From: Daphnia carinata
Lineage: Eukaryota
Length of the DNA stretch: 64,000 nt
Reading direction: 5' to 3'
Assembly: GCF_022539665.2 (NCBI RefSeq)
Contig: NC_081331.1
Coordinates: 3,782,001 to 3,846,000, forward strand
The translations under genes were made by a program, and so were the position numbers. Under the pieces are notes generated by a model. It worked only from the letters and a program-made list of their open reading frames with translations. It did no database searches and had not been told where the DNA came from. Positions 35,468-58,827 of the stretch are shown here, piece after piece. The first letter of the stretch is position 1. Each line of letters opens with the position of its first letter.

Positions 35468-36348
35468 CGCTGTCGCATACTGGCGCGCTATTATTAGCAG
35501 CACGAATGTTCAGTGTATTTAAAAAACAGCTGACTTAATGAAAAATTGAACAATTTTCCCGGAATCAGTATTTAAGTTTAAATACATTCTGAGATATTCA
35601 ACCAATTTCAGTGTCAGGTTTGCCGATGTTTGATGCAAAGTTCCCAAGTTGATTCCCTTCGCTTTTTTCATTTTATTAAGCCTAATGTAAAAAAAAAAAC
35701 CAATTTTCATGTTTAGAGATCAATTTCGAATCGGAATTATATATTTTTAATGTGTCGCTTTTAGATGATTGAATTTTGGGAAAAAAATTTAAACCCGAAA
35801 AAATAAGCCCAGCTTATCCGTCTTATAAAAATTGCTTGGTAGTTTGCGAGGCCTCCGCTAGATGCTATCACACTCGGGTGACCTTAACTGCGAAAAAGCA
35901 AAAAATTTTAAGCCCGACTTTTTCTTTTAAAATTTTTTTAACAAACAGCAAGCAATAATACATACAATTAAAATTTAACAGGGATCACGAAAATAAACTT
36001 AGTTTTTATGTAGAATTTACGGTTTTTGAATAATCTAAAGTATAAAAGCAGATGCGCAATAACAACTATGATAGCGCTGTATTGCTCTATAACTATTTTG
36101 AGTGCGCATAATTCAATAACCTTATAGATTACGGGCAAACTAACGTGTTAGTTAGAATTGGCGTTCAATTTTGAGTCTTACCTGTTTATTTTTTTTCGAA
36201 TTCTGAGAGATGTCGCGTTTTGATGATTTTCGTAAAAATAAAAACTTTTTCAATTTTCGTCAAATTCGAGATTTCGTTAAAAATACATAATTCTGATTCG
36301 AAATTGATCGCTGATCACGAAAATGGGGTGTATTTTTATATTAGGCTT
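35468..36348 (+). mobile_element. Older repeat module B copy plus an internal 72-bp inverted repeat (35678-35750 / 36277-36348); MITE-like remnant
   Basis: 35468-35628 aligns with 45812-45955. AAGCCTAAT...GATCAATTTCGAATCGGAATTAT pairs with ATAATTCTGATTCGAAATTGATC...ATTAGGCTT. Confidence 0.65.
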
Positions 36349-37322
36349 CTACTTTTTGAATTATCCGTAAAAAACAGAAAATCAAAATGGCTTCCCGCAT
36401 GCGTATTTCTAATTCAAAACAAGCGACTAAAATTTGTCTGCTAGCCCCCCATTTAGTGTCATCCAGTGGTTTGACGTGTGTACGTCCTTAAATGTATCCT
36501 GGCATCTATTTGTGAAATTTAGGCGAATACAAACGTGTCTTTTGTGTTCCTGAATTGTGTATTGGATTTGAAGTTGATTGGATGTTCCGTCTCTAAATGT
36601 GTGTAAGTGTATACTTAATTGGTATTTCCGCATCTTAGCATTACGACATCACCTTTTACTTTCTTCAAATGACATGACTAAATTTTTTTCGGATGGTGAC
36701 TTGTCCGCGATGCCTTTTTTTTGCATCATCGCTGTTTTTTTCTTTTCATATGGCGGCCATTTTTTGCCCGCCATATCATTTCCTCTCAACACGTTGTGGG
36801 CCGTTGTTGCCCACCAGCAATTTTTTGGCTAGATTTCTCCCTACCCCAGATCTACGTTTTTTTTTTTTTTTTTTACAGTTTCTTTCTTTTATTGCAAATG
36901 ATTTGCATTTTCTTGGCTTTTCACCGACAAAACACAAATTGAGATTTGCTTTTTTTCTCTTTCGTTTTGTAAACTATTTGAAAAGTTAGTAAAATCGTTA
37001 GTATACCTACACCAAGTAAGAAAAAAAGGGTGAGATTGATTAAGGCAGGGACTAAAGCAAACCCGAACCGTTACAGCTACAACTAACAACCGTGGATCGA
37101 AAGGGAAGTGCAAATTGCAATTTCAGTGCATAGTGAAATACTCGTAAAGCCAATATGCTTAAAGGGAAACTAAGGTAGGGAAAAAGGAATGAGGAACACG
37201 TTGATATGACACAGATCACAACAAATGGAAAAAGTAAAAAAAAAAGCCGATTCGGCCATACTAAACCGTACCATCTTCTTTTCTTCTTAATCCAAATGGG
37301 CGTGAATCTCTGGTTCTCGAGG

Positions 37323-39405
37323 CGGCGACCTTGTAGCTCCCACGACGATCCTCGTTGGGCCTTTTCGGTCCTTTGGCCGGCCAATCTAGATACATAAAAG
37401 ACAAAAAAACACAGTTAGTACACTTTAATTTATCAATGATACCTTTTATGGCGACGATCCCACGGCGATCTTGTAGCTCCCACGACGATCCTCGTTGGGC
37501 CTTTTCGGTCCTTTGGCCGGCCAATCTAGATACATAAAAGACAAAAAAACACAGTTAGTACACTTTAATTTATCAATGATACCTTTTATGGCGACGATCC
37601 CACGGCGATCTTGTAGCTCCCATGACGATCCTCGTTGGGCCTTTTCGGTCCTTTGGCCGGCCAATCTAGATACATAAAAGACAAAAAAACACAGTTAGTA
37701 CACTTTAATTTATCAATGATACCTTTTATGGCGACGATCCCACGGCGATCTTGTAGCTCCCACGACGATCCTCGTTGGGCCTTTTCGGTCCTTTGGCCGG
37801 CCAATCTAGATACATAAAAGACAAAAAAACACAGTTAGTGCACTTTAATTTATCAATGATACCTTTTATGGCGACGATCCCACGGCGATCTTGTAGCTCC
37901 CACGACGATCCTCGTTGGGCCTTTTCGGTCCTTTTGCCGGCCAATCTAGATACATAAAAGACAAAAAAACACAGTTAGTGCACTTTAATTTATCAATGAT
38001 ACCTTTTATGGCGACGATCCCACGGCGATCTTGTAGCTCCCACGACGATCCTCGTTGGGCCTTTTCGGTCCTTTTGCCGGCCAATCTAGATACATAAAAG
38101 ACAAAAAAACACAGTTAGTACACTTTAATTTATCAATGATACCTTTTATGGCGACGATCCCACGGCGATCTTGTAGCTCCCACGACGATTCTCGTTGGGC
38201 CTTTTCGGTCCTTTGGCCGGCCAATCTAGATACATAAAAGACAAAAAAACACATTTAGTACACTTTAATTTATCAATGATACCTTTTATGGCGACGATCC
38301 CACGGCGATCTTGTAGCTCCCACGACGATTCTCGTTGGGCCTTTTCGGTCCTTTGGCCGGCCAATCTAGATACATAAAAGACAAAAAAACACAGTTAGTA
38401 CACTTTAATTTATCAATGATACCTTTTATGGCGACGATCCCACGGCGATCTTGTAGCTCCCACGACGATCCTCGTTGGGCCTTTTCGGTCCTTTGGCCGG
38501 CCAATCTAGATACATAAAAGACAAAAAAACACAGTTAGTACACTTTAATTTATCAATGATACCTTTTATGGCGACGATCCCACGGCGATCTTGTAGCTCC
38601 CACGACGATCCTCGTTGGGCCTTTTCGGTCCTTTGGCCGGCCAATCTAGATACATAAAAGACAAAAAAACACAGTTAGTACAGTTTAATTTATCAATGAT
38701 ACCTTTTATGGCGACGATCCCACGGCGATCTTGTAGCTCCCACGACGATTCTCGTTGGGCCTTTTCGGTCCTTTGGCCGGCCAATCTAGATACATAAAAG
38801 ACAAAAAAACACAGTTAGTACACTTTAATTTATCAATGATACCTTTTATGGCGACGATCCCACGGCGATCTTGTAACTCCCACGACGATCCTCGTTGGGC
38901 CTTTTCGGTCCTTTGGCCGGCCAATCTAGATACATAAAAGACAAAAAAACACAGTTAGTACACTTTAATTTATCAATGATACCTTTTATGGCGACGATCC
39001 CACGGCGATCTTGTAGCTCCCACGACGATTCTCGTTGGGCCTTTTCGGTCCTTTGGCCGGCCAATCTAGATACATAAAAGACAAAAAAACACATTTAGTA
39101 CACTTTAATTTATCAATGATACCTTTTATGGCGACGATCCCACGGCGATCTTGTAGCTCCCACGACGATCCTCGTTGGGCCTTTTCGGTCCTTTGGCCGG
39201 CCAATCTAGATACATAAAAGACAAAAAAACACAGTTAGTACACTTTAATTTATCAATGATACCTTTTATGGCGACGATCCCACGGCGATCTTGTAGCTCC
39301 CACGACGATTCTCGTTGGGCCTTTTCGATCCTTTGGCCGGCCAATCTAGATACATAAAAGACAAAAAAACACAGTTAGTACACTTTAACGTATCACTGAT
39401 ACCTG
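37323..39405 (-). repeat. 140-bp tandem array, about 14.8 copies; unit = 83-nt exon-like + 57-nt intron-like on the minus strand
   Basis: Units start every 140 bp (37331, 37471 ... 39291) with 0-2 substitutions each. The minus strand reads AAG|GTATCA..TACTAAC..polypyrimidine..TAG|ATTGG. Confidence 0.97.
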
Positions 39406-40359
39406 TTTTTGGTGTCGCCGATCCTCGGTGTCCCGCGGTCCACGTTGACGCCCAGAGATTGCCCTCCTAATTCATTGAGAACGAAATAAAAAAAAGAACA
39501 AAGAATCGCTTTTGATTAATCAAATAACAACACCTGTCTGCTTAACGCTAGCACATATCAAGTACACGAATGACAAACAGTTTTTGACAGATAGGTCCTG
39601 AAAAAAAATTTATCGTTAATGGTGAACAGGTTAGGGAAGTTGTTGGGTTGTTAATGTTAGTAGTGTGTTGGCATATTGTGCTAAGAGGTTTGATTGCCAG
39701 TTGGTGTGCAAATTGCAAAAGGAAAATGTGGGAAATATACGGAGTGCATTGCAAGGAGGCAGTGTGGTGCAAAAGTAACCCGTGTGACGATGATTGTGCC
39801 CTAATCATCGTTTTTTTCTAATCTATCTTATGCTAACTAGACTATACACCCGTGCGAAGGCAAAACCCGGTGCTTATATGAGGCTTTCGTGGTGTGAGCT
39901 TGATTGAGAAGGCGTGAAACACTACACAAAACACCCGGAGAGATCTATCTACACTAGTGTGCACCGTGCAAGTGTGTGAACTACTGATCGGAATAGCGGA
40001 TTTTTTTTTCTTTTTTTTTTTTAAATTGAATTGCTCGAGGACATTGATGTATTCGAGGTCACTGCTTATGGGTAGATCAATAAGGGTGAAATTGGCATTT
40101 CCTCCGATTATGCTGAAATGTTCCAAAAGCCATTGACCTTCAGGTTTACGTTACCTCTCCTTTTAAATTTTGTTGCCAAGAAGTGTTTTCATCTATTTTC
40201 ATTCAGAATTCAGGAGCATAGAAATGCCCTTGTCTGACATTCAACTTCATGCTGTGTGGGGCGAAAAAAAAGGAAAGGGTAATAATATTGATGGTTACGT
40301 CATACTGTAATGGTACACCCGCTGGGGATGGCGAGCAACATCAGGGTGACATCAAATCG

Positions 40360-40434: not shown

Positions 40435-41145
40435 ATGGGTAAAGTATAACGTTTAATTAGAATAGAAATTGATGTTGATGTAATGCAAGGGTTCAGTGAA
40501 TGATTTCCTTAAATGAAATGTTGGAATGAAATTTTCAAACTTAATTCTGTACATTTGTTTGCAATGTTTCAAAGTTCTATGGCATGTTAGCAATAAATTA
40601 TGTCTTTCTTCCACGACTATAGGTATCTATGGCATTGCACTACTACTTACTGTACACTTATCGCTGGATCGAGCATAGGTGTGCCAATGGGTTCACCGGC
40701 TTCTAACTATGGTAGTTCTTAATATCAGACTTCAAGGGCTGCGCCGTACGACGTATGGAGCCCCCACTTGCTACAGTACAAAGGCGCCCGAGTACTACAC
40801 CACAACATATGCGGCTCCTACTTACCACTCGGAGGCCCCGAAATACTACGCCGCACCAAGCTATTATATAACAATGTACGCCACTCCAACATACTACACC
40901 GCAGCTGCGCCGTCTTACTACGCTGAAGCTCCAAGTTACTACACAGCAGTTGCCCCTTCGTACTACGTGGAACCTATAGCTACTACACCACAACTTATGC
41001 TGCCCCGCTTTACTACACCGCAAAAACGCCAGAGTACTACGCTACCACTTACGCCGCTCCCAGGTACTACACCGAGGCTCCAGCTTATTACACAACAACG
41101 TACGCCACTCTCAGCTATTACCCTGAGCGACCAAAGTATTATTAA
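40435..41145 (+). pseudogene. Decayed gene for a secreted Tyr/Thr/Ala/Pro-rich repetitive protein (YYTTTYAAPxYY / EAPKYY repeats; structural, cuticle- or egg-envelope-like)
   Basis: ATG-G micro-exon at 40435-40438, GT-AG intron 40439-40622, then signal-peptide-like MGIYGIALLLT.. and LIAGSSIGVPMGSPASNYGSS*YQ. Repeats KAPEYYTTTYAAPTY and SYYTTTYAAPLYY...ERPKYY* lie in different frames, requiring about 3 frameshifts and one in-frame TAA. Confidence 0.8.
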
Positions 41146-41790: not shown

Positions 41791-44700
41791 TGATAGCTCT
41801 TACATCTCTATTCAGTTTTGCATTGGAATGGGGGGCCAATCCCATACCAATGCTTGACGTTTCGAGTTGTAATTGCTTACAGACTCTCGTACTAGTCCCC
41901 ATCATAGGGAGGGTACCATACCCAGTCGTTTCAAGTGCCGCTACATTAGGATGTTCACGCAACTATTATATACCGTGAATGACGACCCCAAACCATGTTG
42001 ATAACACAAGCGGGCATTTTCCGTCTTAAACTAACTCTCATTTAAATTCAGTGAAACTATTGCACAATGTAATAAATGAGCCGTTTCAAGAAAATAGTGA
42101 TAAAGAATATCCAAGGTAATTATAAAACAAAACACTTAAGTAAATGTTTAAAATTTTCAATTATTATGTAGCACTCACGAATTAGGGCGTGGCACCACGC
42201 ACCCTTAATGACATGCAAGAATACTCCATATCACCTTGCGGCCGATTTTGGCACTAATGCGTTCATGTATTGGCTTGGTGCTATTCTAGTTGTGAAGGGA
42301 AAGTAAGTTGGAGCCAATCTAGGTTTGTCATTATTTATTTTTGGCATTCGTATACCTGTATAAGTGGCTCTGTATGCAGCCCATTGCGTCTAGTGGGCCA
42401 TAATACTTCAATGATCCAGCTTTCTAAATTTCCGCTTTTGACAACCATGGCCTATGCCACATTCCCAGGGCTTATCAAGTCTAGTAGAAAAGTGTTTGTT
42501 CGTATTTACCGTACACTCTGTTGGCACCATGAATATTCCACAAAGGAATTTTTGAACGTTAGTTTACCAGGGCATATGCGTATAAGATTGGGTTCGATAT
42601 ATGATATACTTCCGCTTTTCTTTCGTTTTTCTCCTGAGTGAGTGAGTGATCTTCAGTGAGAGCATCTTGCAGGCATGTTGTAGCACAAAAAATTTTTTCT
42701 TTCAATTCCTGAATTCTTAATTTTATTATGCTAGGTGCTGCATTGTAATTGCAGAACAAAACCTGTACAACTATGATTCTTTTGTACAGCCGATGCAGTA
42801 TGGAATGCTTGAATCCTTATCTGACTAGAATGCAAGTGTCCAAAAAAGTGATGTGTTGCACTCAGTGTACTTATCTTAGTGGTACGACTTAAATCATTCT
42901 AATAGATAAACATCAAAGGGCAAAGATCTGCATCCTGACTGAGGTTCCTCAGCAAATGCAGTAGCAAGTTCCCATGCAAGTTTTAGCACACAACTTGTTC
43001 GTCTGTGATTCATCCCGAACATGCATGCAGTATGAAGTGATGGACAGGCAAATGTACAACTATATCTCATAAACATTGATCATCTGCCTTATATGTGTTC
43101 ATTGTTCTTCTAGGGGTGAAGTGTGGAAGATGCCAAAGGCCATTTTCATTACGTAGAGTGGAACTTAAATTTCTCTTGTTGGTTATTTCAAGGCAGTAAT
43201 AACTATGCTGTAAACAATTCATGAAACATGGTCATCTTTTCCTCTCAGTGATGAGGTGAGAAAAATTTATGGGGTAAATTAAAGAATCAATAAATTTCTT
43301 TTCTGGCAAAAAAGGCATTGCAGAAGCAAATCCGAAAAATGGGCAAAAAAGTTATTCGTTCCACCCATCCCATAAGAAAATGCTGCAGAGATCACCAAAG
43401 TATAGAGCAAATGATTTCCTGTGGTCTGATCAACATGCTAAATCCACAAGACGTAAGTCATTTCGTTCAAAGAATTCCTAATGAAGATTTTCAGTTTCTT
43501 CTGAAGAATCGAAAACATTCATCTTAAGGACATGATCCTGACCCGTAGCAATTATCTTCACACAATGGTTGCAACGATTTTCAAAACCGAACAGGATCCA
43601 AGTAACGTAATATTAAAAATTTCTAAATCCAAGTGTAGGCAGGTCTTGAATGGCAAACGAGCGCCTAATGGTTATGAAGTTCGCAGTTTGCTCCACTTTC
43701 CGCGCCATTTCAAAATCCTCGCTGCCAAAAGAGTTGTTTCTAACACTATTCTTCTGGACCGGCGCCCACAGAACTAAATTTACATGCAAAGAGTGGTCGT
43801 GAGGATTTGGCTGATCACTACAGTAAAAACTGCAGAGAGTGGGTAAACTTTTACGTTAAGTGACCAAAACGATTGTCATTATAATATGTTTTCGTAGGTG
43901 CGTATTGTACAACAACGATTTGTTAAATCCTTGGAGTATCATCGTTGCAAATACAATTCGACTGGGAGAAATACTGCCGGTAAGACGATTGTTTGGATTA
44001 ACCTACCTTAAAGCCAAAGATCTCTGTAGATTTTCGAAGAGCTCTTGATCGTATTATAGCAACGCATGCAGATGAAGATCTGCTGGATCACATTACCACA
44101 ATTTTTTACGACAATTATGGAAACGATCCCTTTAAATCGGTTGCGGTCGACTTCAAACATAAACTTAAGTAATCCATGCTTTTTGCCAGTTGATAAAGCA
44201 TTTTAAGGGTACTATTTGGCATCGGTTGTATTTTTCTGGAGGTTAAAGTCAAACAAGTATAGAAAGTACGGGAGCATTACAAAACTGAATGTCGCCACCC
44301 TTGACAGTGGATACAATTTGGAGTGCATTACCGTAAGTAAACTAGTGGAGCTTTGCAAATTTTTTAAAGAGATGTATCACCGTATGAACCGGGCATAACA
44401 GCGTTAAATTTTTTCACAGCTAGTTACTTCAAATAAATCCCCTGGTATGTTGCACATGTGACTATGTATTGTGCTTGGAAACGGCTGCCTGTGAGCTTTG
44501 CGCCCAGAGCATTGGTGAACACGGCACTCATTCGACGTAAAATACGTTTTTCACTCGTGCGTCATCAATGGGCATCATATAGTGAGTTCCTAGGTATGCA
44601 AGGAACTTTCGTCAGTGATAAGATTTGTGACTTTGTATCCCGGCAATTTTCAGGATTTAGGAAATATTTAACATCTCGAAGGCCACCAGTACAGCTGTTA

Positions 44701-45235
44701 GCTGCAGCTCCTAATCTATGTCGTCGCGGAATATGCGCTATGAGTAAGAAAAGAAAAAACAATGCCATGAGAAGTAAACCTTGGTAACCATTTTCTTCCT
44801 GGTTTTTACTTCTGTCTTTTATAAGTGACAAGATAATTTGAAGAAGCATATCTGGCCGATGACCGCTTCAATGTTGATTAAAATGGACGTGAACCGAATC
44901 CGCTTGCTGAAATCAGATATGGCTTCAAATTGATTGGAATCTATCGTAAATGCTGAAGCTCCCATTGTTTGCCTTAAGGGATGCCATATGAACCTTTGCT
45001 TAAAGTAAGGCAATCTGAATGCAGTCGTACTACAATACGTACATGAAGTTGTATCGCAAGTCAAATGTATGGCGAAAAATTTCGATCCTGATTCAGTTTA
45101 AGCCGAAGAACAATAATGGAACTTTACTTTCTAGTCTTCTCCAACAGACAGTCGTTTTACAAATCTACACCACGTATTACGGGGGGAATAGCTAAGTTTT
45201 TGAAAAAAAATAAAATAAAAAATGGGAAAAGTCGG

Positions 45236-45470
45236 GCTTATTTTGTAGGGCTTATTTTAAAAGCTGGCCGAACATAATTTCCCGCGGACAGCGCTGCAAA
45301 TTCACCAGCCTCTAGCGGCTGAAATCAAAACTATTTTTTGACATATGATTCTCATTGTTTACTTTGTTGTTACGTTGAAAGCATGTATTTGAGTTTACTT
45401 CATCGGAATAGCTTGTTGTTTTTACCTCCACCCCTATTATTGATGTGCAAATTTTACGCTGCTTCGTTAC
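45236..45470 (-). repeat. Repeat module A, inverted relative to 57176-57420
   Basis: Reverse complement gives GGTAACGAAGCAG..TTTGCACATCAATAATAGGGGTGGAG..TAAACAATGAGAATCA..CGCTAGAGGCTG..GGCCAGCTTTTAAAATAAGCCCTACAAAATAAGC, collinear with 57176-57420. Confidence 0.8.
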
Positions 45471-45799
45471 CAACACAAAATATAAGCTGTTGGGCATAGA
45501 ACAAGATAAGGAAGGAAACAAGTGGTTGTGATAAAAAAAAAAGCATCAGCACCACTGGCAAGAATGTAAACATGAAGACTTGTTATGGACAATATCTACA
45601 ATTGGTACAAATGACACATGGGGTGAAACCACAGTATGACGAAATAGCTTGACGACGTATGACAACCGCAAAGTACGCTACAGCGCTAGCACGATGCAGC
45701 AGAAAAATCGGTGAGTGTATGCAGAGAATTACCTAGAAATCTGACCGGGAGGCGGCGATTTTTTTCATTAAGTTAATCGTTTTTGAAATAGTAAATTCT

Positions 45800-46163
45800 A
45801 CTGCATCACGCTAGCGCTGTACCGTATTGGCGCGCTAGCATTGCGTCAAATGTTCGGTGTATTTAAAAAACAATTAACTTAATGAAAGAAATAGCAATTT
45901 TACCGGAATCAGCATTCAATTTTGAGTATATCCTGTGATATTCAACCAATTCCGATGGGTTTCAATTTTTTCAGAAAAATTTTTAAGCCCGACCGAGAAA
46001 TCTCGGGCTTATTTAGTCGGCCTTATTTAGTCGGCCTTAAAAATTTTTTCGGTCAGTGTATGTAGAGAATTAACCAGAAATGTGACCGGTAGATGACAAT
46101 AGCAGTAAAAACAGAAAAAAGGCCAATATTTTTATTTTTATTTTGGGTTAAACGGATTGCCAT
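45800..46163 (+). mobile_element. Dispersed repeat module B (non-autonomous DNA-element-like), copy 2
   Basis: GCTGTA..TGGCGCGCTAGCATTGCGTCAAAT...CGGAATCAGCATTCAATTTTGAGTATA...GACCGGTAGATG...ACGGATTGCCAT shared with 57420-57755 and, in part, 35468-35628. Confidence 0.8.
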
Positions 46164-46346
46164 TATGGCAATCCGTTTTACCTATGGCAATCCGTTTTAC
46201 ATAAAAAAAAAAAAAAATGGCGGAAAAAAAAATCGCACTTTTTTCTTTTTTTCCGACACGTAGCCATCTACCGCTCAGACTCATTATTACTGGCGTAGGC
46301 AATTTCAGTCCATTGGATGCCATTTGCAGTTAGTTCAGTAGCGTGA

Positions 46347-47400
46347 ATGGAGAATAACGCGTGGCTGGAGGAACAATTGAAAAATGGATAAGATAATACA
46401 ACAAAAGGATGGTAGGTATAAACATTATTATATTGGTTTTCAATTATTAATTATTGTTTATTACATCAAATTATGAAGCTGCAGGCCCAATTATTGGAAC
46501 AACACAAAATATTAGATAACAGCAAAGCTAAGGATGGTAAGGCCTAATATGTAATGATTCTATTTATTTGCTTTTATTCATTTGTGTTTTGTAGCTCAAA
46601 TTTTGAGTCTACATGCTCAGTTACTGGAAAACAGACAAATTAGAATGGGACACTTTCCAAACAGTGAAGGAGGTTTTTCCAAACTCATCCCTAACTGAAC
46701 ATGAGGATGAGTTGGCGTTAGGCGAACACAGTCAGGTACCTAAACTTTTCAAATAAGAATTCAAAATAAGTATAGAATTTTAAAAAACAATTATTTATTG
46801 TTTAGTTATTCAGTCCACCACATGACAGTGTGTTAAATTTAAATTCTGTTAGTGCTGCACTAAAAGAATCGTTAGTAATAAGCTCATGCAGTGAAGGAAC
46901 TGAACAATTGTGGGAACGTATTTGGGCCGAAAATGGGTGTGGTACAGAAACCCAGAAATGGCACAAGTTCAACATGAAACATGGATTAGGTACTTTTCGG
47001 TTTTTTGTCTATCGAAAAAGTATTTTTAATGCTATTATTTTGCATTCACAGATTTTAACGGGGGATCAAATCAAGTCTGGAAGTGTTACAGGATGGAAGA
47101 GTGAGCCTACAGATGAAAAACACTGAGAGTGCATTACCGTAAGGTATGAGGTAAATTAATAGAGTAATGCAAATTGCCTAATGAGAAGTACCATCTTGTG
47201 TTAATGAATCCAGTACAACAGCAATCCTTTATAGTTCTGTCACAGCTAGAAGCCTCAAATAATTCTGCTTCTCTGTCTAAAGAACAACTTGTCCTTTACG
47301 TTCAGAGTGTTGGGGAAACTGGGTACTTAAATGGCCCTAAAGATGTTTTAATTTTGCTGCTATTGCAGAGATGAACATCATACATGGACTCTTTAGGTAT
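46347..47400 (+). pseudogene. Degenerate multi-exon gene in the palindrome arm (mirror copy on the minus strand at about 49960-51000), with a coiled-coil-like N-terminus
   Basis: Short exons separated by ~60-nt GT-AG introns give MDKIIQQKD-DQIMKLQAQLLEQHKILDNSKAKD-AQILSLHAQLLENRQ. Stops and frameshifts follow. One acceptor AG survives only in the right arm (50879-50880). Confidence 0.55.
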
Positions 47401-47862
47401 GAAAGGATTTTTCTTCAAATAATTTTGATTTTATGACGAAGAATTTCTCCTCCTTTTTGCCAACCAGGTCTTATCTACCAAAAAAAATTTTATCCAATAG
47501 GAAAGGATTTTCATGTATTGGGAACACAACTATCAACAATGCAACATTCTAGGGGTGTTATTTTATCCTTCAAGAGCCTTATACAATGATTTTCATCTAC
47601 AATTTGTATGGCCTTTCCCGAGCTTCTGCCAGAAGTTGAATCTATGAGTCATGTAAGTCACATGAGCAACAATTGAGATGCTTAATGGTGGTGTTTTTCT
47701 TTTCTCAGTGTAGGTTAATAGTAACATTGGATCTGAAAAAATTCTTGGTTGGGGCAAGACACTAAATAAATTGTAATGATTGGATGGATGACATGATATT
47801 TCTATACTTCATTCGGATTCCCGAGACGGTATTTGATATTTAAAAAATTGAAGTGCATATCT

Positions 47863-48226
47863 GGGCTCCCTTCCTTTCCGTAGCCCCGTTTCCCCTTGAC
47901 TCGTAATAAGCCCGTAGGGGGTCATGCCCCTACTGTACGGTATATATAAAAACAACATATACCGAGGTTTGGAGGGCTCTGGCCGGAAAGGGGACGTGGG
48001 GTGCCGCTTCGTCCGATGATGTGTTCACGGAGGGTGACGTGGCTGCCCACAAATCCGAACTAAAGGTTAATCGCTCCTGTAAAAATGTTCCAAATCTTCA
48101 GCTCTTCTTCCGGCTTCTCTTAGCCAATCACCGGGTAATCTCCCCGGTGGGTCAACAAGGCAGTGTCTCCCCCTGCCTGGGTTGACGGCAACTTTTGAAA
48201 GGGCTATTGTGCCTTTTTAAAGTTGC
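47863..48226 (+). ncRNA. Candidate structured RNA/ssDNA domain in the palindrome core (mirror copy 49134-49497, minus strand)
   Basis: Run of hairpins GTAGGGG/CCCCTAC, CGGTATAT/ATATACCG, CACCGGG/CCCGGTG, GTCAAC-AGGCAG/CTGCCT-GTTGAC and GCAACTTT-GAAAGG/CCTTTT-AAAGTTGC, plus a long-range TTCCTTTCCG/CGGAAAGGGG helix. G-U pairs favour this orientation. Confidence 0.5.
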
Positions 48227-48435
48227 AAAAATAATTGTAATGTGCAGAGAATTGTCAATAAAATTTTTTTTATAAAATATTTTTTGCAAAATTCGTTTCT
48301 TTCATTGTGTGTGTTAGCTTTGTTCACACATTGCATTTATCAATTTTTTTTTTGGCTTTGATTTATTTGTTTTTGTCACATTTGATGGTAAGGTGACGGG
48401 CATTGGTTTATCGTTTATCTGTAAGCATTCTATTA

Positions 48436-48499
48436 TTATCCAGGGATCGAACCCTGGATGTTCGGCATACCTCGCCGATGCTCTACCAATGAGCCACGA
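48436..48499 (-). other. tRNA-like element (A box + B box, D/anticodon/T arms, no acceptor stem); tRNA pseudogene or SINE-like head
   Basis: Minus strand TCGTGGCTCATTGGTAGAGC-A-TCGGC-GAGGTAT-GCCGA-AC-ATCCAGGG-TTCGAT-CCCTGGAT. Confidence 0.7.
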
Positions 48500-48624
48500 A
48501 TCATATGATTTTAAGTTGGCTTTTTTTTCTAGTCACTTGTGGACTTGCATTTACACTTAGAATAAAACTGAAATGCAATTCTGCAATATACTCTTCTACA
48601 TTATTCTACTACATTTTTACACAT

Positions 48625-48690
48625 CTACTCAGGTTTGAACCCAGGGTAACAGGTATCGCAGATAAAAGCTCTACCACAGAGCTAAGAACC
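48625..48690 (-). other. Second degenerate tRNA-like element
   Basis: Minus strand TAGCTCTGTGGTAGAGC (A box/D arm) ... CTGGGTTCAAACCTGAG (B box); the anticodon arm is degenerate. Confidence 0.6.
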
Positions 48691-48790
48691 TTATGGAAGC
48701 AATAGAAAGATAAACATATAGTTGTGAAAGACTGCATAAACATCCTAGACGATAACATATGATATGCGATAATAAAAAATTTAAATATAT

Positions 48791-48856
48791 CTCGTGGCTC
48801 AATGTTAGAGCATCGGCGTTGCACGCTGAATGTCTGGGGATCGGTTCCCATACGAG
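48791..48856 (+). other. Third tRNA-like element, inverted homologue of 48436-48499
   Basis: CTCGTGGCTCAATGTTAGAGC-A-TCGGC-GTTGCAC-GCTGA...TGGGGATCGGTTCCCA-TACGAG. 25/27 identical to the left element over the 5' half; B box decayed. Confidence 0.65.
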
Positions 48857-48939
48857 TAAAACAAAATACAAAATTACTGCATAAAATATCCAGATTGTTC
48901 CTTGAATCTAAGTTGAAGAATTCAAAAAGAATAAATAAT

Positions 48940-51310
48940 ACTTACAGATAAACGATAAACCAATGGAAACAATGCTTACCATCAAAGGTGACAGAAACAG
49001 TAAAGGTGAATTAAGCAAGCTAAATATAAAATGTGTAACGTGTGAATACAGACAATGAAAGAAACGAATTTTGCAAAAAATATTTTATAAAAAAAATTTT
49101 ATTGACAATTCTCTGCACATTACAATTATTTTTGCAACTTTAAAAAGGCACAATAGCCCTTTCAAAAGTTGCCGTCAACCCAGGCAGGGGGAGACACTGC
49201 CTTGTTGACCCACCGGGGAGATTACCCGGTGATTGGCTAAGAGAAGCCGGAAGAAGAGCTGAAGATTTGGAACATTTTTACAGGAGCGATTAACCTTTAG
49301 TTCGGATTTGTGGGCAGCCACGTCACCCTCCGTGAACACATCATCGGACGAAGCGGCACCCCACGTCCCCTTTCCGGCCAGAGCCCTCCAAACCTCGGTA
49401 TATGTTGTTTTTATATATACCGTACAGTAGGGGCATGACCCCCTACGGGCTTATTACGAGTCAAGGGGAAACGGGGCTACGGAAAGGAAGGGAGCCCAGA
49501 TATGCACTTCAATTTTTTAAATATCAAATACCGTCTCGGGAATCCGAATGAAGTATAGAAATATCATGTCATCCATCCAATCATTACAATTTATTTAGTG
49601 TCTTGCCCCAACCAAGAATTTTTTCAGATCCAATGTTACTATTAACCTACACTGAGAAAAGAAAAACAACACCATTAAGCATCTCAATTGTTGCTCATGT
49701 GACTTACATGACTCATAGATTCAACTTCTGGCAGAAGCTCGGGAAAGGCCATACAAATTGTAGATGAAAATCATTGTATAAGGCTCTTGAAGGATAAAAT
49801 AACACCCCTAGAATGTTGCATTGTTGATAGTTGTGTTCCCAGTATGCTGAAAATCCTTTCCTATTGGATAATTTTTTTTTTGTAGATTAGACATGGTTGG
49901 CAAAAAGGAGGAGAAAAGCTTCATCATAAATTCAAAAATTTTTCAAGAAAATTCCTTTCATACCTAAAGAGTCCATGTATGATGTTCATCGCTGCAATGC
50001 CAGTGAAGTGAAACATCTTTAGGGCCATTTAAGTACCCAGCTTCACCAACACTCTGAGTGTAAAGGACAAGTTGTTCTTTAGCAAGAGAAGCAGAATTAT
50101 TTGAGGCTTCTAGCTATAACAGAACTATAAAGGATTGTTGTTACACAGGATTCATTCACACAAGATGGTACTTCTCATTAGACAATTTGCATACTCTATT
50201 ACTTTACCTCATACCTTAATGGTAATGCACTTTCAGTGTTTTTCAACTGTAGGCTCACTCTTCCATCCTGTTACACTTCGAGACTTGACTTGATCCCCCA
50301 CTAAAATTCTGTGAATGCAAAATAATAGCATTAAAAATACTCTTTTGATAGACAAAAAACCGAAAAGTACCTAATTCATGTTTTATGTTGAACTCGTGCT
50401 ATTTCTGGGTTTCCGTACCACACCCATTTTCAGCCCAAATACGGTCCCACAATTGTTCACTTCCTTCGCTGCATGGACTTATTACTAACAATTCTTTTAG
50501 TGCACCACTAACAGAATTTAACTTTAACACACTGTCAGGTGGTAGACTGAATAACTAAACAATAAATAATTGTTTGTTAAAATTCTATACTTATTTTGAA
50601 TTCTTATTTGAAAAGTTTAGGCCTAATGCCAATTCATCCTCACGTTCAGTTAGGTTTGAGTTTGGAAAAACCTCCTTCACTGTTTGGAAACTGTTCCGTT
50701 CCAATTTGTTCTTTTCCCCTAGCTGAGCTTGTAGACTCAAAATTTGAGCTACAAAACACAAATGAATAAAAGCAAATAAATAGAATCATTACGTATTAGG
50801 CCTTACCATCCTTAGCATTGCTGTTATCTAATATTTTGTGTTGTTCCAATAATTGGGCCTGCAGCTTCATAATTTGATCTAATAAACAATAATTAATAAT
50901 TGAAAACCAATATAATAATCTTTATACTTACCATCCTTTTGTTGTATTATCTTATCCATTTTTCAATTGTTCCTCCAGCCACGAGTTTTTCTCCAGCCAC
51001 GCTACTCAATTAACTGCTAATGGGATACAATTAACTCAAATTGCTTACATGCCTATAATAACGAAACCGACTGGTAGATGGCTACGGGTAGAAAAAAGAG
51101 AAAAAAGTGTGATTTTTTTTTTTTTTTTTGGTTTTTTTTTTTTTTTTTTTATTTAAAACGGATTGCCATATTGCCATACGGATTGCCATAAAAGATAAAA
51201 GTATGGCAATCCGTTTTACCCCCCCCCCCCCCAAAAAAAAAATTCGGCCTTTTTTTCTTTTTACAAGTACCGTCATCTACCGGATTCTAATTAAGTCTCT
51301 AAATACAACT
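48940..51310 (-). repeat. Right arm of the palindrome
   Basis: Reverse complement of 46056-48425, with its own mutations such as a ~16-bp deletion near 50620 that removes a donor site. Confidence 0.95.
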
Positions 51311-51745
51311 TACATATTCTAGCCATGTAAATATAAAATTTTTTAAATTAATAACTTAATTTTATTAACATATAACTATACAGTAATTATTTTTTTATAT
51401 TCTACTTGCTTAACTTAATTATTATTACACGTATTAGTGATTCCGTTTTGTTAACAATCTACATAATTAAGGTGAAAACTAATCACATATTCGGAATCGA
51501 CGTTTATTTTGGTTTTGGCGGTAAATTGAAACAAAATTCCAAGCCAAAATTTTTGTCGGCATTATTTTATTATTTATTTTTTATTTACTTATCGAAATCA
51601 TAGATAAAGACGAGTGGTCTTTATCCTTGTCGAAATATTGAAAATATTTCTTTTTTAGATGTAAGATTTTTGACCTCGATCTGGTAACGTCGCGGGCAAG
51701 AATTGGTCTGAAGTCCTTCCTTCGCCATTTTGGATGTAGCCTTTA

Positions 51746-52190
51746 TCACGTATCATCGTCTGACGTATTGTCTGGTCTTTTACTATTTAAATACGCTTTC
51801 CTTTCTTGTAATTCCTTGGCTCGTAGACTCTGCACTGACCAACAAAGAAAATGCATTTTCACATTACCTTGTCCAAATTTAACATACTCGTCATTTAATT
51901 GATCATAGAAAACATTTTGCGGTACGCACAAATGCCTAAATCTTGATGGGAACTGTTTGCATGCAATGTTGAAATGCGTTTTCTTTTGGCGTAAAGTTTT
52001 TTTACTAGTATGGTAAACATCCAATCCATTCCTGCTTACTGAAGACTTTTTGTCAAAATTTTGAATCTCGGAATTTTGATATTGTATCTCATACAAACAT
52101 TCTTGCCTATGTCAGGAAATAGGGTACAGTAATTGCATGACACATTTTGAGTCTGCCGTCTGACTTGTACACATGTAATGGGAAATGTTT
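51746..52190 (-). pseudogene. Degenerate coding remnant of unknown family
   Basis: 116-aa ORF of ordinary protein-like composition (..KMHFLCWSVQSLRAKELQERKAYL..), preceded in another frame by SCNYCTLF (CxxC). Family not recognised. Confidence 0.3.
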
Positions 52191-53949
52191 GGCCTTATTA
52201 TAGCTTTAGTATTACAAACGAATTTATTCATTTTTTTTTTGCTTCAGGTATTGGAACAACTAATTACATGGAGGTTTTGCATCAATTTGGGACTTGAGTT
52301 GCCGGTAGTTGGTTGAAAAGAGCATCAATGGGTAAGAATGAAAATAAATAATACTTAACATTTCAAATCTTTTGATGTTGTATATTGGCTAATATAGGAC
52401 CACAATTTTTTTCTCCATTCATCTTTAGAATCCTGGATTGCTCACTGGTTATGGAACATTCTCGTCTGTTCAGGCCAAAAGTATGACAAATCTATCCACA
52501 TCAAACATGGAACCGATTACCGTATTGTACACAGAAATGTTTGAAGGTGGAGTATTTAAAATTATAAATAATGCATTAGTGGATTTCATTTAATTCATTG
52601 TTGGGGTTTTGTCTATCCTACGTCATTTACTAATTGTCCTTGAATAGGTTAGACTTTTAAGGTTCTAGATTTGCCTTTAGGCACTATAGTTATTTACTAT
52701 TTGAAGTTAACACTTTGCACCTTGGGTAGTGAAAGAATGTGTCGTGCTGCGTTCAAACATTAGAAAGTCCAGCAGCTGCAAGTGGTTTCATTGCTGTCAA
52801 TGTTCTTCCTTCTGATAAAGCAGATACTACCAACGTTCGAACTAATTTTTATAGCGCTAGCTTACGTAGTATGTGATCCTTTGGCGATGCGTTGGCTTTT
52901 CGTATTACTTGTTTTTTGTACTTACGTAACAATTATGCCCATTTTGGAACACATTCTAAAAACGTCGTTCTGTTTCATCATTTTTTCGATAATATCGAAT
53001 TTAACAAACTTGTAATTTTTGGAAATGTGTTAAAAAATTACTGGCTAATGGTTCTGAATGATTTTGTTTATTTGTTATTGTTCTACGTCGTGTGATGAAT
53101 TTGCTATTTTTATCTTTTGGTCGTAAACATTGGAGGGAAAGAAGCCGTTGTTAATTAAGTAGAATTTTGTTCACTGGCAGACAAACTGCTGTGTTATCTT
53201 TGAAGACAGTCCGAATAGTTCGGTTACAAATTGCACAAGGAAAGTTGCGAGAAATAGGGCATCTTTAGGTATTGCGCTGTTAAAATGAGTCGCACCTCAG
53301 TTTCTTCCACCTAAATCTTACCCTCAATACATTGTGAGAATACTAATAAATACTGTTTTTTTTTTCTTTTCAGATGAAATGGGTTCGATGCATGTTGAAG
53401 TAATGTTCCAGAAAGCAGCATTCCAGGGGCAAGAATCTAAGTTGTAAGGCTGATCAACACATTATATATTGTTCAACTTACTTTCTTTGCTCCTTGGTGA
53501 ATTTGAATTAAATTGGAAATTGAAAGTTATTGAACTAATTTTCCAATCAGTTAGATGGAATTTGTGGAAGTTACCGAAATGTCAGGACGGAGTAATACGC
53601 AAAATTTGGATTCGATAAAAGTGTTGTTATGTGGTGAATACTTAGAACGTCTGTTTGCACTTCCAGAAGTTTTAAGGCTTGGGACATGATAAAGGCTGTA
53701 GATGGTGGAATTTGGATTGCAAGTCAAAATCGTGTTGTTGCCTGTCGACCATTAAGTAACAGTTCGAGCTAGTGTGTCTTAAGAATGATTGCTTCTTAGA
53801 TACTAAAAATAAATACACAAAGATATAATTGGAATTGGTTTTGTATTGTCCCACCTCCACCCACAATTCCACCACGTTTTAAATTACATGTTATTTAATA
53901 CATACATTTTACAGTATACAATACAAACATACATACATACATAAACACT

Positions 53950-54290
53950 TAAGCTACCCCGTTGGCTGCCACGCCATTGCAACCCGTAGGTTGCTCTCTA
54001 CAGTAGCTACCATCGCTTCAGATGGAAGACGATGCAAGGGGGACTTGTCTTTCGACAAGTCCGGGCTGACTTGACGGTGGAGACCTTTATGGGAATGCAC
54101 ACCCCGGGTTACTCCACCATCAAATCGACAAAGAGAAGGCCCTGCTGGTGCATTGCCTAAATGCGCCCGAAGGCGCAGGCGACTGCCCTACCCCAATAGG
54201 TGATCAACCTAGGGGTAGAACAGCGCCGCCGGTCCCTACAACTACAAAAAAAATGGGAGAAAAATGGGTGGCAGCCAACGGGTTAGCTTA
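53950..54290 (-). ncRNA. Unrecognised, highly structured ~340-nt RNA element
   Basis: 23-bp closing stem with one mismatch. Minus-strand loops are C(UUCG)G at 54162-54177, C(UACG)G at 53979-53994 and C(GAAA)G at 54041-54062. A 15-bp helix (54068-54082/54112-54126) and a 12-bp helix (54183-54194/54212-54223) are continuous only with minus-strand G-U pairs. Confidence 0.75.
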
Positions 54291-54419
54291 CAATACATTA
54301 CACGACAATACAAAACAAACTATACCAAAAAACGCGCGGCTCCACGATGACCGGGATGAGGCGAAGACAAGGGCGACCAAAGGCGATGCAGCAACTGCGA
54401 TTAGTTCGATGACGGAAGA

Positions 54420-54765
54420 CAGCAAAGGCGGCGACGGCGATGACGGCGATGACGGCGAGAGGATAACGGCGATGACGGCGAGAGGTGACGGCGATGACGA
54501 CGAGACGAGGAAGGCGATGACGACGAGACGAGGAAGGCGAGACGAGGAAGGCGAGACGAGGAAGGCGATGACGACGAGACGAGGAAGGCGAGACGAGGAA
54601 GGCGATGACGGCGGGACGATGACGGCGATAATGGCGATGGCGGCGAGACGATGACGGCGAGACGATGGCGGCGAGAAGCGGACGGCGGTGATGACGAGAA
54701 GCGGACGGCAGTGATGGCGAGAAGCGGACGGCGGTGATGGCGAGAAGCGGACGGCGGTGAGGTAC
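54420..54765. repeat. GC-rich low-complexity minisatellite (GACGGCGAT-type units, 14-bp GACGAGGAAGGCGA units, four 23-bp CGAGAAGCGGACGGCGGTGATGG units)
   Basis: Direct repeats are visible. The minus strand gives patches of SPSSSRRHR that switch frame. Confidence 0.85.
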
Positions 54766-56029
54766 GATCAGCTGGATGACGATGAGTAGAAAATTAGGTT
54801 GGGAACAGGACTCATTTCTTTTTCATTACCAATCTGTATAAAAAAAGGAAATAAATCAGATGAAAGAACAAGAGCATAATCATGGCCATCTGCAATGAAA
54901 AACATTTGTAAAACACGAAAAACAAACAAAATTCATCAAAGAGAAAGATATACACTACATGACAACCAAAGTTTTCTATTGGCAACCTACTTGCAACAGT
55001 ACCATTTAACAAACCAATGTGTTATTGAGCTTTTTACATTGAGTAAAGATTCTGAAAGTCTAGCGGAAAAGTCTACTACAGATAAGTTGTATGGGGAACT
55101 AAAAGGTGAAAAATATTACTACTTCCATTAGTCCACTTCAATGTAAATGTGCAACTACCATATATCTAAAATAATAAGAGAACACCCAGTAAGCTTGAGT
55201 TTGCAAACTACCCACTACAACCTTATGAGTCAATTGACAATCTGTTGCGAGGGACTCATTTGAAACCAATGCTCCCATGGTAAAATTTACAAGTATTTAA
55301 ATTTGTCTTCTATGCTCTGGAGAGAAATTAAGTGACAAATAAAGTAAAACTAAACTAAAGATTAAATTTCACAAGAACATAAGAGATGAAGCACTTTTTC
55401 TTGGTTGCAATTTGAGTCCAACTTTCCTATGGTTTGTTAACGAGCAGCCATCTAACTATTCTAACTCTTAAGCTAAAAAATAATGTCAGACTTAGATTTA
55501 TGGTCATTTTTAACTTACTTGATGCTAAAAACGCACGAAAACAACGATGGAATACACAAAATTAACGAAGCAAAGGCTGTTGGGACGTTTAGTCCGCCAT
55601 GACAGCCATAGCAGACGACAGTCTCCTGCAATCCTTAACATTGAATCATAAATAATAAATAAATATTGAATTTTACGAGTATCGAACTAGAGATCTTCCT
55701 GTTACCAGCATAGCACTCTAATCATCTAACCTAACACGCCAGTATTTAACACAGCATAGCATGATAAGGTTATAATAATGGTATGTGGTATATCTTCATG
55801 CTATGATCTATATTTACCAGGTATACCTTCCCATTTGCGTGATACATAGTGCTAGTCGTCTCTGTTAACGATGAAGTGTCATAAGTATATCAATTCGCCC
55901 GATCAACCAACAGCAAAATAATAAAACAAGCACGAAAGAAGCCACTACACCATTTCATATGTGATCAAAATGCTTAAAATGTTTGGCATATTAATGTTCA
56001 TTTTTTAGTTTTTGCGAAGTTGGAAAAAA

Positions 56030-56400
56030 AAATTACCGGAAGTGACCGGAAGTAGACTATATCTCCAGAAATACTGGGCCCATAACAAAACGAATATGAT
56101 TTTCGTGATCCTCGTGAAATTTAAGGTGTGTCTGACCTATTTTGACCTTTTTTTGGCGAAAAGTCCAATTTGGCCAAATCGCGATTTTTCCTGAACTATA
56201 GTTCAGGTAAATTTGCGATTTTTGACGATTTTCGGGTATTTCCTACTGACCCATGGATTCGACCCCAAATTTCACGAGGATTACGAAATTGTAGTTCTTT
56301 TTTCATTCACACCAACAGATAGTGAGTTATAAGCATTCTCAAACCGGAAGTTGTACTGAAAGTTAAAATTTCGAAAATTTAAAAAATGAACTATGTTCTC
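56030..56400. mobile_element. MITE/foldback-like remnant with an internal inverted repeat and CCGGAAGT motifs
   Basis: TTTCGTGATCCTCGTGAAATTT (56101-56122) is inverted with AAATTTCACGAGGATTACGAAA (56267-56288). ACCGGAAGT occurs twice in tandem near 56035-56053 and again at 56343. Confidence 0.5.
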
Positions 56401-57175
56401 TTTCACAAGTTACAAAAGATCTGCGTAGTTTTAAACGTAAACTATAGTAAATGAACATAACATGGCCTTTCAAAGTTCTAAAAGTTCAGTTTTCAGGTAC
56501 GACCTGTATACCACTTTAAAAATCACTACCACACACATAATAATCGAAGCAAATGTTTTAAAACCCTCCCCTTAATTTTGTAGCCATCAGAATTAAGGGG
56601 ATAGTGGAACAGATATGGTTATTACCAGACAGAAGTAAACGGGTGATCCTATTCTTGCAGAATATTAGCAAATAGCACATCTTCAAGAATGTCTTCAAGG
56701 TTTATTTACGAAAAAATCTTCTGCTACAAACTATGAATATTTTGTTGCATTGGGAAATGACTGCTATCCATATAGTTTTTGCATTAATATCCAGGCATAA
56801 ACATCTGCATTCAAATTCATAAATAAGTTACAATTGATTCACAAAGTAATAAAATCATGCAACAAACCATATGTGCACAGTACACAACAGAATACATCTG
56901 TTACTTGCAACTCCACCACTGGATATCTTTACTAATAAAGAAGAACAAGATTAACATGTTACAAATGTAAAAGTAGTAAATTATCATCTTAATAATCCTG
57001 AAAATTGGCTTTTGGTTGTAAACACAAAAACCATCAATTTTCACCAAATATCATGCACAGTTCTGCTTGTAACACTGGCTTTACCCAGAAGGATACAACA
57101 TGAGACCTGGTTTTCCAAAAGTATGTTAACATTACCTCACTGTAAGCCCAAGTGCAACGGCTGACATTTCGTTTA

Positions 57176-57420
57176 GGTAATGAAGCAGGGCAATATTTGC
57201 ACATCGATAATAGGGGTGGAGTTAAAAACAACAAAAACAACAGAAATAACGATACCGTTCAGCACGTTGTCAACGCAAAAACAAAATAAACAATGAGAAT
57301 CACATGACAACAAAAAATAACAATAGTTCCATTTGACACGCTAGAGGCTGATGAGTCTGCAGCGCCATCTCGTGGAAATACTGTTTGGCCAGGTTTTAAA
57401 ATAAACCCGACAAAATAAGC
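57176..57420 (+). repeat. Repeat module A, forward copy abutting module B
   Basis: Collinear with the reverse complement of 45236-45470. Confidence 0.8.
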
Positions 57421-57790
57421 ATCGCACTAACGCTGTAGCGTACTGGCGCGCTAGCATTGCGTCAAATACTCGGTATATTTCAAAAACAATTAAGTTCATA
57501 AAAAAAATAGCAATTTATTCGGAATCAGCATTCAATTTTGAGTATACCCTGTGATATTCAACCAATTCCGATGAGTGTCAGTTTTTTCAGAAAAAAAATT
57601 TAAGCCCGACCAAGAAAAGTCGGGGTTAAAAACTTTTTTCGGTAAGTGTATGAAGAGAATTAACTAGAAACGTGACCGGTAGATGGCGATAGCAGTAAAA
57701 CAGAAAAAGGCTAATATTTTTAATTTTTATTTTGGGTAAGACGGATTGCCATATAAAAGTAGGTGCGCAATAACTAGTATGATAGCGCTG
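57420..57790 (+). mobile_element. Dispersed repeat module B, copy 3
   Basis: Direct repeat of 45800-46163. The 3' extension AAAAGTAGGTGCGCAATAACTAGTATGATAGCGCTG also matches 36045-36079. Confidence 0.8.
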
Positions 57791-58827
57791 GTTTTCCAGG
57801 AATGGGTCCTTCCATAATAGACCGCGTTGTATTCATCATTTGTTTGAAGTCCCTCCTCTGGGCGGGTTGAGTTACGCCGAGCGTCCTTCAGCAGCATGGT
57901 GCAGTATAGGCCGACGGCGCTCCTTTCATAGAGCAGCAGCAAGTAGCTGATCGTAATTCGTGCTTTTACACACAAAATACAATCTATACAGTACCCACCA
58001 GAAGAATTGCATCACCCTCTGCGAATTTTGGTGTTTTAACCCGTGTGGGATGTGCAACGTTAGAACAATAGCGGAATCAAAGCGGTTTCGGTTGCTATCA
58101 CTTTGAATTCAAAGTACTTTACAACTATAGGTTCTACGAAAAATGAAATCGATTGTCATGATTGTCTTCACCGCTACAGCACGCTACAGCGCTAACGTGG
58201 TGTAGCACAGTAATTCTCTTCTCGAGGGCCTTCTCACTTGATCACGTTTCACAAAAATTTAGATCTAGTGAAATATACAAAATTTTGACGCGCACAATAA
58301 GTCGATATATTTCCTGTGCTGGCTGCAATACCCTATCTATAGGCGCACTGACTGTGCAATGTCATGACCGTTTCTTCAAATTTATTAATTTACCTGTATA
58401 TTGAGGAACTTTTCTCTTTCGAGCAGAGAAACAAACGGAGCATTTAGAAGAGAACTTCCGCTCAGCGGCATTCGGAACACTAAGTTAAAGGCTTAGGCCA
58501 CGGCTCACCAAATTCTTCCGGAATTCTCTGGTTGTCGACAAATGATTCAGTTTTATTCTATAGCAAATGGATACCAATTATTCACATACCCAAAATTTAA
58601 AAAAGGACTAAAATATAACAAAATAACAAATGCAAAACACCAGACGAAAACTGTACATGAAGGTGTCAAGATATCTTCTATCTTGAATTGTCCCGATACA
58701 CAATTTAGTAATGTGAACACTTCTTAATAAATTTATTTCTAAGTAGAAAATATTTCACTTGAACAATAGTCAAGCTATATCGACGATCCAGATCCGAGGA
58801 ATTATATTAACGGGTTACCATAGACTC

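Follow-up and report, generated by a model that had tools for sequence, protein, structure and literature searches.

A 5-kb palindrome of Daphnia carinata read as a foldback derivative of an IS3EU-type transposon, with a spliced gene in each arm and tRNA-like units at its centre

What is a long palindrome with a spliced gene in each arm and tRNA-like units at its axis, a host locus that yields hairpin RNA or a mobile element? The question is raised by positions 46164–51170 of a 64,000-nt stretch of the Daphnia carinata genome (GCF_022539665.2, NC_081331.1, positions 3,782,001–3,846,000 of the forward strand), called the window below. A preliminary description proposed a hairpin RNA (hpRNA) locus transcribed by read-through and kept, as a fallback, a foldback element or an inverted duplication of one transposon. 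The fallback is backed by transposon termini, by the target site duplication (TSD) of a sibling element, and by homology of exon 4 of the arm gene to a transposase-like N-terminus. The palindrome, here E1, is best read as a multi-copy, Galileo-like foldback derivative of the IS3EU superfamily, shuffled by gene conversion, and not as a host hpRNA locus.

Termini and arms of the palindrome

In a self-comparison of the window there is one long inverted match, between 46057–48437 and 51307–48930, with 89.9% identity over 2,424 columns. The two inverted arms of ~2.4 kb described previously are thus real, as is the palindrome itself, but its ends, which had been placed at 46056 and 51310, have to be moved inward. 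There are 85 TAYGG sites (left) and 95 CCRTA sites (right) in the window and, among the pairs at most 25 kb apart, just two, 46164–51170 and 51202–57753, present both a flanking direct repeat and matching ends. With the TATGG..CCATA pair at 46164/51170, the palindrome proper is E1, and the apparent outer ~110 bp on each side (46057–46163 and 51202–51310) are the ends of neighbouring siblings, E0 on the left and E2 on the right. The palindromic motifs noticed at the outside of each arm are present and correspond to the transposon terminus. The features, with extended terminal inverted repeats (TIRs) as arms, are:

46164–51170, no strand: E1, non-autonomous IS3EU-type transposon with foldback structure, 5,007 bp, TATGG...CCATA
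46157–46163, plus: left flank repeat TTGCCAT, 7 bp, candidate TSD, also within the TIR of the neighbour
51171–51177, plus: right flank repeat TTGCCAT, 7 bp (TRF reads 51162–51178 as a tandem 8-mer)
46164–48308, plus: left arm (extended TIR), with a 19-bp tandem duplication of the terminus at its start (46164–46200)
49052–51170, minus: right arm (extended TIR), 92.5% identical to the left arm over 2,150 columns
47692–48308, plus: block identical in both arms, 617 bp, 100%; partner 49052–49668
45803–46163, plus: right end of the sibling E0, into whose terminus E1 is apparently inserted; 81% identical to 57419–57752
51202–57753, no strand: sibling E2 with the same terminus, 6,552 bp, clean 6-bp TSD TAAAAG

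IS3EU elements have TAYGG..CCRTA ends, TIRs of more than 30 bp and, usually, 6-bp TSDs (PMC12730594, PMC10045372). E1 has TAYGG..CCRTA termini, its two ends match each other with 2 mismatches in 20, and its similarity to the ends of E0 and E2 extends over the outer ~100 bp, a TIR of more than 30 bp. The likeness to IS3EU and GingerRoot elements (PMC10045372, PMC12730594, PMC8232023) extends over the ends, the TIR of more than 30 bp, the 6-bp TSD of the sibling, and the remnant of an N-terminus from a transposase of the integrase-core type. On the other hand, E1 departs from them with no catalytic core, 2.1-kb TIRs with a spliced gene in each, a tRNA-like centre and a 7-bp flank repeat. The superfamily is listed for Daphnia pulex, at 0.05% of the assembly (PMC8594854); its structure and function are described as largely unexplored (PMC11934779), and a fungal element related to IS3EU carries an integrase core (PMC8232023). 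CACTA, Kolobok, Helitron and Penelope were dropped as candidates once the IS3EU-type termini were mapped and no ribozyme core was found. In scans with the TIR patterns, 11 viral and 31 metagenome loci were returned; blastn and tblastn found no similarity between any of them and the window or the family, and these are chance matches.

In its architecture E1 recalls the Galileo 2RT copies of Drosophila mojavensis (PMC3573991), non-autonomous foldback elements in which the TIRs have grown by recruiting internal sequence and chimeras arise via conversion or ectopic recombination. The very long TIRs and the short spacer of foldback elements are found in E1; internally repetitive TIRs and P- or MuDR-type ends are not, since E1 has short repeats only and IS3EU-type ends. 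Galileo belongs to the P superfamily and has TIRs up to ~1.26 kb, and the available part of its description mentions neither a spliced gene per TIR nor a tRNA-like core (PMC3573991). The superfamily and the foldback principle are already known; gene-bearing kilobase TIRs with a tRNA-like axis appear to be new. Searches of the open literature, judged from titles listed except for the papers cited, turned up no IS3EU element with either feature; E1 may be catalogued in Repbase or Dfam. The earlier remark that this architecture is not recognised from a named family agrees with these searches, in which no description of it was found; the superfamily can be named.

The identity between the arms is a patchwork. 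It is 76% over the outer 220 columns (46164–46383), 91% over the gene, 99% at 47516–47691, and 100% over the 617-bp block; in the innermost ~200 bp it falls to about 68%. The arms hold 21 perfect runs of at least 21 nt, the longest being those 617 nt. Conversion from arm to arm and among the dispersed copies would account for the patchwork.

Where the ends of E0, E1 and E2 abut (46150–46200 and 51155–51215), the terminal motif is present six times. This clustering suggests insertion at or beside the ends of siblings. Bacterial IS3-family elements insert at or next to sibling ends. The left end of E0 was not found in the terminus-pair scan of the window.

The arm gene and its relatives

Each arm contains a multi-exon gene pointing inward, as previously described, with the same exons on both sides:

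46384–47139, plus: left-arm gene, coding exons 46384–46411, 46466–46536, 46595–46735, 46806–46989 and 47052–47139
50220–50959, minus: right-arm gene, broken by a 16-nt deletion at the exon-3 donor and a stop codon in exon 4
46806–46943, plus: segment homologous to the N-terminus of D. magna protein P0056, just before a helix-turn-helix (HTH) (hhalign E 3e-13, 53%, 51 columns)
44134–44634, plus: older paralogue of arm exons 4 (end) to 6, 58–60% DNA identity

The left copy is broken as well, with AC as the acceptor of intron 1 and a frameshift in exon 3. The gene had been called decayed, which is correct for the two arms of this locus but not for the family, which is large and has intact open reading frames (ORFs). 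Exon 4 of the left arm is 100% identical to part of the D. carinata RefSeq protein P0001. Matches were obtained for 13 of 17 candidates, all of them "uncharacterized" D. carinata proteins that represent 93 sequences in 13 clusters; together with P0054, the family amounts to 94 distinct proteins. They lie on 10 different sequences of 7.9–14.4 Mb (chromosome-size). In a sample of the LOC identifiers (at least 64, up to 15 members per cluster, reduced to 62 by excluding two of a later number series), seven pairs with adjacent numbers occur at six loci, for an expectation of 0.25, and none of 20,000 simulations reaches that number. At five of the six loci one identical protein stands under both names, and the sixth pair is identical over 145 aa. 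A paired layout of the gene that recurs at other loci is suggested by these numbers.

A profile search against 1.84 billion representatives gave 10 matches: two members of the family, five named proteins of D. magna or D. sinensis, two unnamed Logan proteins of the same kind, and one TPR protein (P0060), discarded as a chance match. Outside D. carinata, this search returned partial relatives only. The part of the family that matches the N-terminus of P0056 is residues 78–128, encoded by exon 4. Beyond this segment, P0056 is similar to the HTH region of rva_4 integrase-core proteins from eukaryotes (Atlas 0.96 and 0.92; the structural neighbours carry rva_4). P0056 itself has no Pfam match, no sequence match in the PDB, no fold match and no longer relative, and its model is poor (pLDDT 42). 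Exon 3 (residues 29–78) matches the N-termini of D. magna P0055 and P0057 (E 1e-12), which, from a motif, may be the second ORF of IS3EU. With exons that match separate proteins and later exons that match an older gene, the arm gene appears to be a chimera that ends before the HTH. Because P0056 continues from the homology with exon 4 into an integrase-type HTH, the arm gene is likely transposase debris. The only trace of a transposase found is this N-terminal fragment preceding the HTH; for a DDE integrase core, the six frames of the left arm gave no Pfam match. The older gene related to arm exons 4–6 extends over 43100–44830, is spliced, with intron skips in the public run X1, and probably lies within E0.

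From run X1, 850 contigs align to 43800–49050. Among the 15 joints listed, of 29 in all, are GT..AG intron skips at 46535–46594, 46987–47050, 47148–47212 and 44591–44652, and intron 1 is also skipped. These skips suggest that X1 samples RNA from a related strain; were it DNA, copies without introns would have to exist. No contig of a further run, X4, aligns.

The arm genes differ by 8 synonymous and 23 non-synonymous changes, a dN/dS of 0.65 that does not depart significantly from neutrality (p 0.36). The introns differ less (7/239) than the exons (40/500; p 0.009), a contrast partly confounded by base composition. The C-termini are diverse, with 17 different endings among 55 proteins and scattered stops. 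In the same 55 proteins, all four gametes are present in 93 of 190 site pairs (9/25 at up to 10 residues, 30/79 at 11–40, 54/86 beyond 40). The rise with distance points to exchange between copies, to which recurrent mutation could add. No Pfam match above the cut-off was obtained with the arm exons and the family proteins, and the Atlas search with P0008 gave leads below 0.8 only. The model of the family protein is poor (pLDDT 46) and has a predicted long helix at the N-terminus. The chimeric product of 120–160 aa, pieced together from 5′ exons and lacking both the HTH and a catalytic core, is probably a passenger.

The structured domain, the centre and the neighbourhood

Inward of the gene, and again as previously described, come a GC-rich domain with hairpins and tRNA-like heads that point outward:

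47856–48232, plus: GC-rich structured domain, with a hairpin run at 48100–48232; partner 49128–49504
48257–48262, plus: AATAAA, candidate poly(A) signal of the inward transcript; mirror near 49098–49103, minus strand
48432–48503, minus: left tRNA-like head, outward; Rfam tRNA E 0.0028 at 48441–48496; first downstream T4 at 48291
48788–48860, plus: right tRNA-like head, outward; Rfam tRNA E 0.055 at 48788–48859; first downstream T4 at 49069
48620–48691, minus: third, more decayed tRNA-like unit; A-box and B-box present, no significant fold

The GC-rich domain likely lies in the 3′ untranslated region. Its folding z-scores over 47855–48235 are –3.4 (plus) and –5.1 (minus), more stable than all shuffles on both strands; over 48100–48232 they are –5.4 and –4.8. 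In a wetland run (X2), positions 48069–48230 show no difference in 162 nt, whereas three other arm contigs differ at 33 of 580 nt (p 0.0004); run X3, of the same study, shows five differences in 250 nt. The domain has no Rfam match (E up to 10) and, in a descriptor scan, no hammerhead- or HDV-like core. RNase MRP, 7SK and other known RNAs gave no Rfam match either, and a 22-mer of the domain was absent from the metagenomes in a pattern scan. A TATA-like box, TATATAAAAA, is present at 47938–47949 within a hairpin of the domain, with a T5 run ~270 bp further downstream; it could give rise to a small transcript of its own.

The heads score 27.8 and 23.1 bits, both below the Rfam gathering score for tRNA of 29. 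ARAGORN finds no tRNA, and no full cloverleaf exceeds curated thresholds. The D stem is intact in all three units and the anticodon stem is 80% paired. Between the left and right heads, the stems differ at 1 of 18 sites and the loops at 8 of 19 (p 0.019, post hoc). Outward units resembling those of RNA polymerase III (Pol III) are plausible from these sequences. Cassandra elements carry 5S promoters in their long terminal repeats. Like tRNA-derived short interspersed nuclear elements (SINEs) and tRNA-gene insulators (PMC11346459), E1 is a mobile element with internal Pol III promoter boxes; unlike the SINEs, its units lie back-to-back where the two halves of a DNA transposon meet, and neither a SINE tail nor a TSD is seen with them. 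Insulator activity is reported for tRNA genes (PMC11346459).

At the centre, 85 contigs of X1 sum to a depth of 70–1000 over most of both tRNA-headed units and of 0–4 over ~270 bp (48523–48792), with an adapter-bounded end at 48798. Low-depth contigs do reach into it (48440–48558 and 48616–48791). No single piece among the 85 contigs spans the centre, and contigs cannot show one through-transcript. Coming from contigs of a single run, the depth gap is a weak hint against read-through. Both variants of the inner ends are represented by several X1 contigs.

Around E1 the window contains further repeats. E2 holds a decayed spliced gene (~51700–53750, plus) with a Cys-rich stretch that may resemble KDZ transposases; Pfam and homolog searches were blank. 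It also contains a nested inverted repeat (53950–54290), a GA-rich repeat (54400–54790), and a small palindrome (55996–56391). An isolated repeat at 35465–36350 shares the subterminal module of E0 and E2 together with sequence found after the right end of E2. A tandem array occupies 37183–39442 (140-bp period, ~16 units, 99% identity). The nest of transposons is flanked by host genes at 40436–41145 (plus) and 58800–62450 (minus); from the translations, we take the former to be a Tyr/Thr/Ala/Pro-rich cuticle-like gene and the latter an EDEM/alpha-mannosidase-like gene.

Origin of the palindrome and its meaning

E1 is probably a non-autonomous derivative of IS3EU that is moved in trans and whose TIRs have been lengthened toward the centre by repair or conversion. 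Several observations weigh against this. The flank repeat of E1 has 7 bp rather than 6 and lies itself within the TIR motif; as part of the neighbour's terminus, it is compatible with insertion there and is weak proof of insertion as a unit. Neither an autonomous partner nor a catalytic core was seen (Pfam blank; P0056 without a longer relative). Adjacent LOC numbers say nothing of orientation, and most of the 62 sampled identifiers have no partner. The strong conservation of the hairpin domain and the lower divergence of introns than of exons are not accounted for by a purely passive element. At the centre, the missing T4 runs downstream of the heads carry no statistical weight, being shared by 8% and 15% of background windows, and the B-box of the right head is degenerate. 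Lastly, X1 is labelled "DNA?", and its contigs give no strand, start or level.

The same palindrome could instead be a silencer, in which read-through would produce a 2-kb fold-back RNA and small interfering RNAs would silence IS3EU and the arm family in trans. The layout is that of Mu killer in maize, an inverted duplication of a TIR with 5′ transposase sequence at a single locus, for which read-through from a flanking gene is proposed (PMC3440606). E1 likewise has two inverted copies of one TIR with 5′ transposase sequence; the perfect runs of at least 21 nt, including the 617 nt, would suit such a role, some low-depth X1 contigs do enter the centre, and diced RNA would be under-represented in ordinary libraries. 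However, in contrast to Mu killer (PMC3440606), the E1 family is multi-copy, and a poly(A) signal and tRNA-like units precede its centre. The AATAAA thus precedes the point that read-through has to cross, X1 depth drops there (again a weak hint), and no single X1 piece crosses it. A family that is both expanded and spliced is a poor fit with effective self-silencing, and we regard a silencer as distinctly unlikely. Drosophila hpRNA loci are long inverted repeats able to fold back. E1 differs from them in its transposon termini and origin, and shows no sign of a single transcript over both arms. The host read-through locus first proposed finds no support, in view of the termini, the relatives on 10 sequences, the AATAAA (48257) before the centre, and the scant X1 cover of the centre.

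There is a small chance that E1 is a one-off local product, with two single-arm elements joined tail to tail (or a product of alternative transposition) and then made partly alike by conversion. In favour of it, the arms diverge by 9% in their gene parts, which look like different members of the family, the region is a nest of abutting IS3EU ends, and the TSD of E1 is ambiguous. Such a product is difficult to reconcile with a single terminus per arm and none in the centre, with consecutive near-identical genes at six other loci, or with several X1 contigs for each inner-end variant. That the palindromes keep a domesticated, functional gene family, comparable to sex-chromosome amplicons, or that the protein is a KP-like repressor that poisons the transposase, is very improbable: the many intact ORFs, the splicing, the predicted N-terminal helix and the faster divergence of exons than of introns would agree with it, but dN/dS is not different from 1, the stops are scattered, both arms are broken here, the HTH is missing, relatives outside D. 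carinata are partial, and the model is poor (pLDDT 46). An assembly artefact, from a fold-back chimeric read or a collapse during polishing, is scarcely credible. The inner 617 bp are perfectly identical, and polishing could account for that exact block alone; the outer arms, however, differ by 9–24% and carry indels of their own, the centre is not palindromic, both heads are found in an independent run, and paired genes are annotated at other loci.

For the IS3EU foldback derivative, the following course may be proposed. Movement would be by cut-and-paste, in trans, by an IS3EU transposase. If the transposase needs just the outer ~100 bp common to E0 and E2, repair or conversion could lengthen the arms toward the centre, the course suggested for Galileo; the 2.1-kb arms likely stem from the copying of one gene-bearing end over the other. 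Each arm would be transcribed inward, spliced, and ended near the AATAAA at 48257. The two arm mRNAs would have the same sense and so would not pair with each other. The tRNA-like heads could act as outward Pol III units of ~200–280 nt, terminated by T runs close to the poly(A) site. Tentatively, though this is less likely than not, the heads may form a barrier to read-through, so that at most a short antisense overlap is left. The centre as a whole would then be a built-in insulator against RNA interference (RNAi), in which the poly(A) site, the conserved structured RNA and the back-to-back Pol III units halt read-through; this idea is speculative and we hold it to be rather unlikely.

With E1, a foldback IS3EU element is described whose TIRs exceed those of Galileo in length, which apparently tends to insert at the ends of siblings, and which brings Pol III-like units into a DNA transposon. 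Some 90 "uncharacterized" proteins in the D. carinata annotation are likely transposon arms; counted as genes, they would exaggerate any lineage-specific expansion that is claimed. Palindromes of 5 kb dispersed in dozens of places would serve as substrates for ectopic recombination. If the centre does insulate, this would be a young, high-copy palindromic IS3EU family in which both arms are transcribed and spliced without long double-stranded RNA, and copies that lose the centre would become mobile silencers of the superfamily, of the Mu killer type. The family could also serve as a natural set of long inverted repeats with which to compare escape from RNAi and its triggering in an arthropod.

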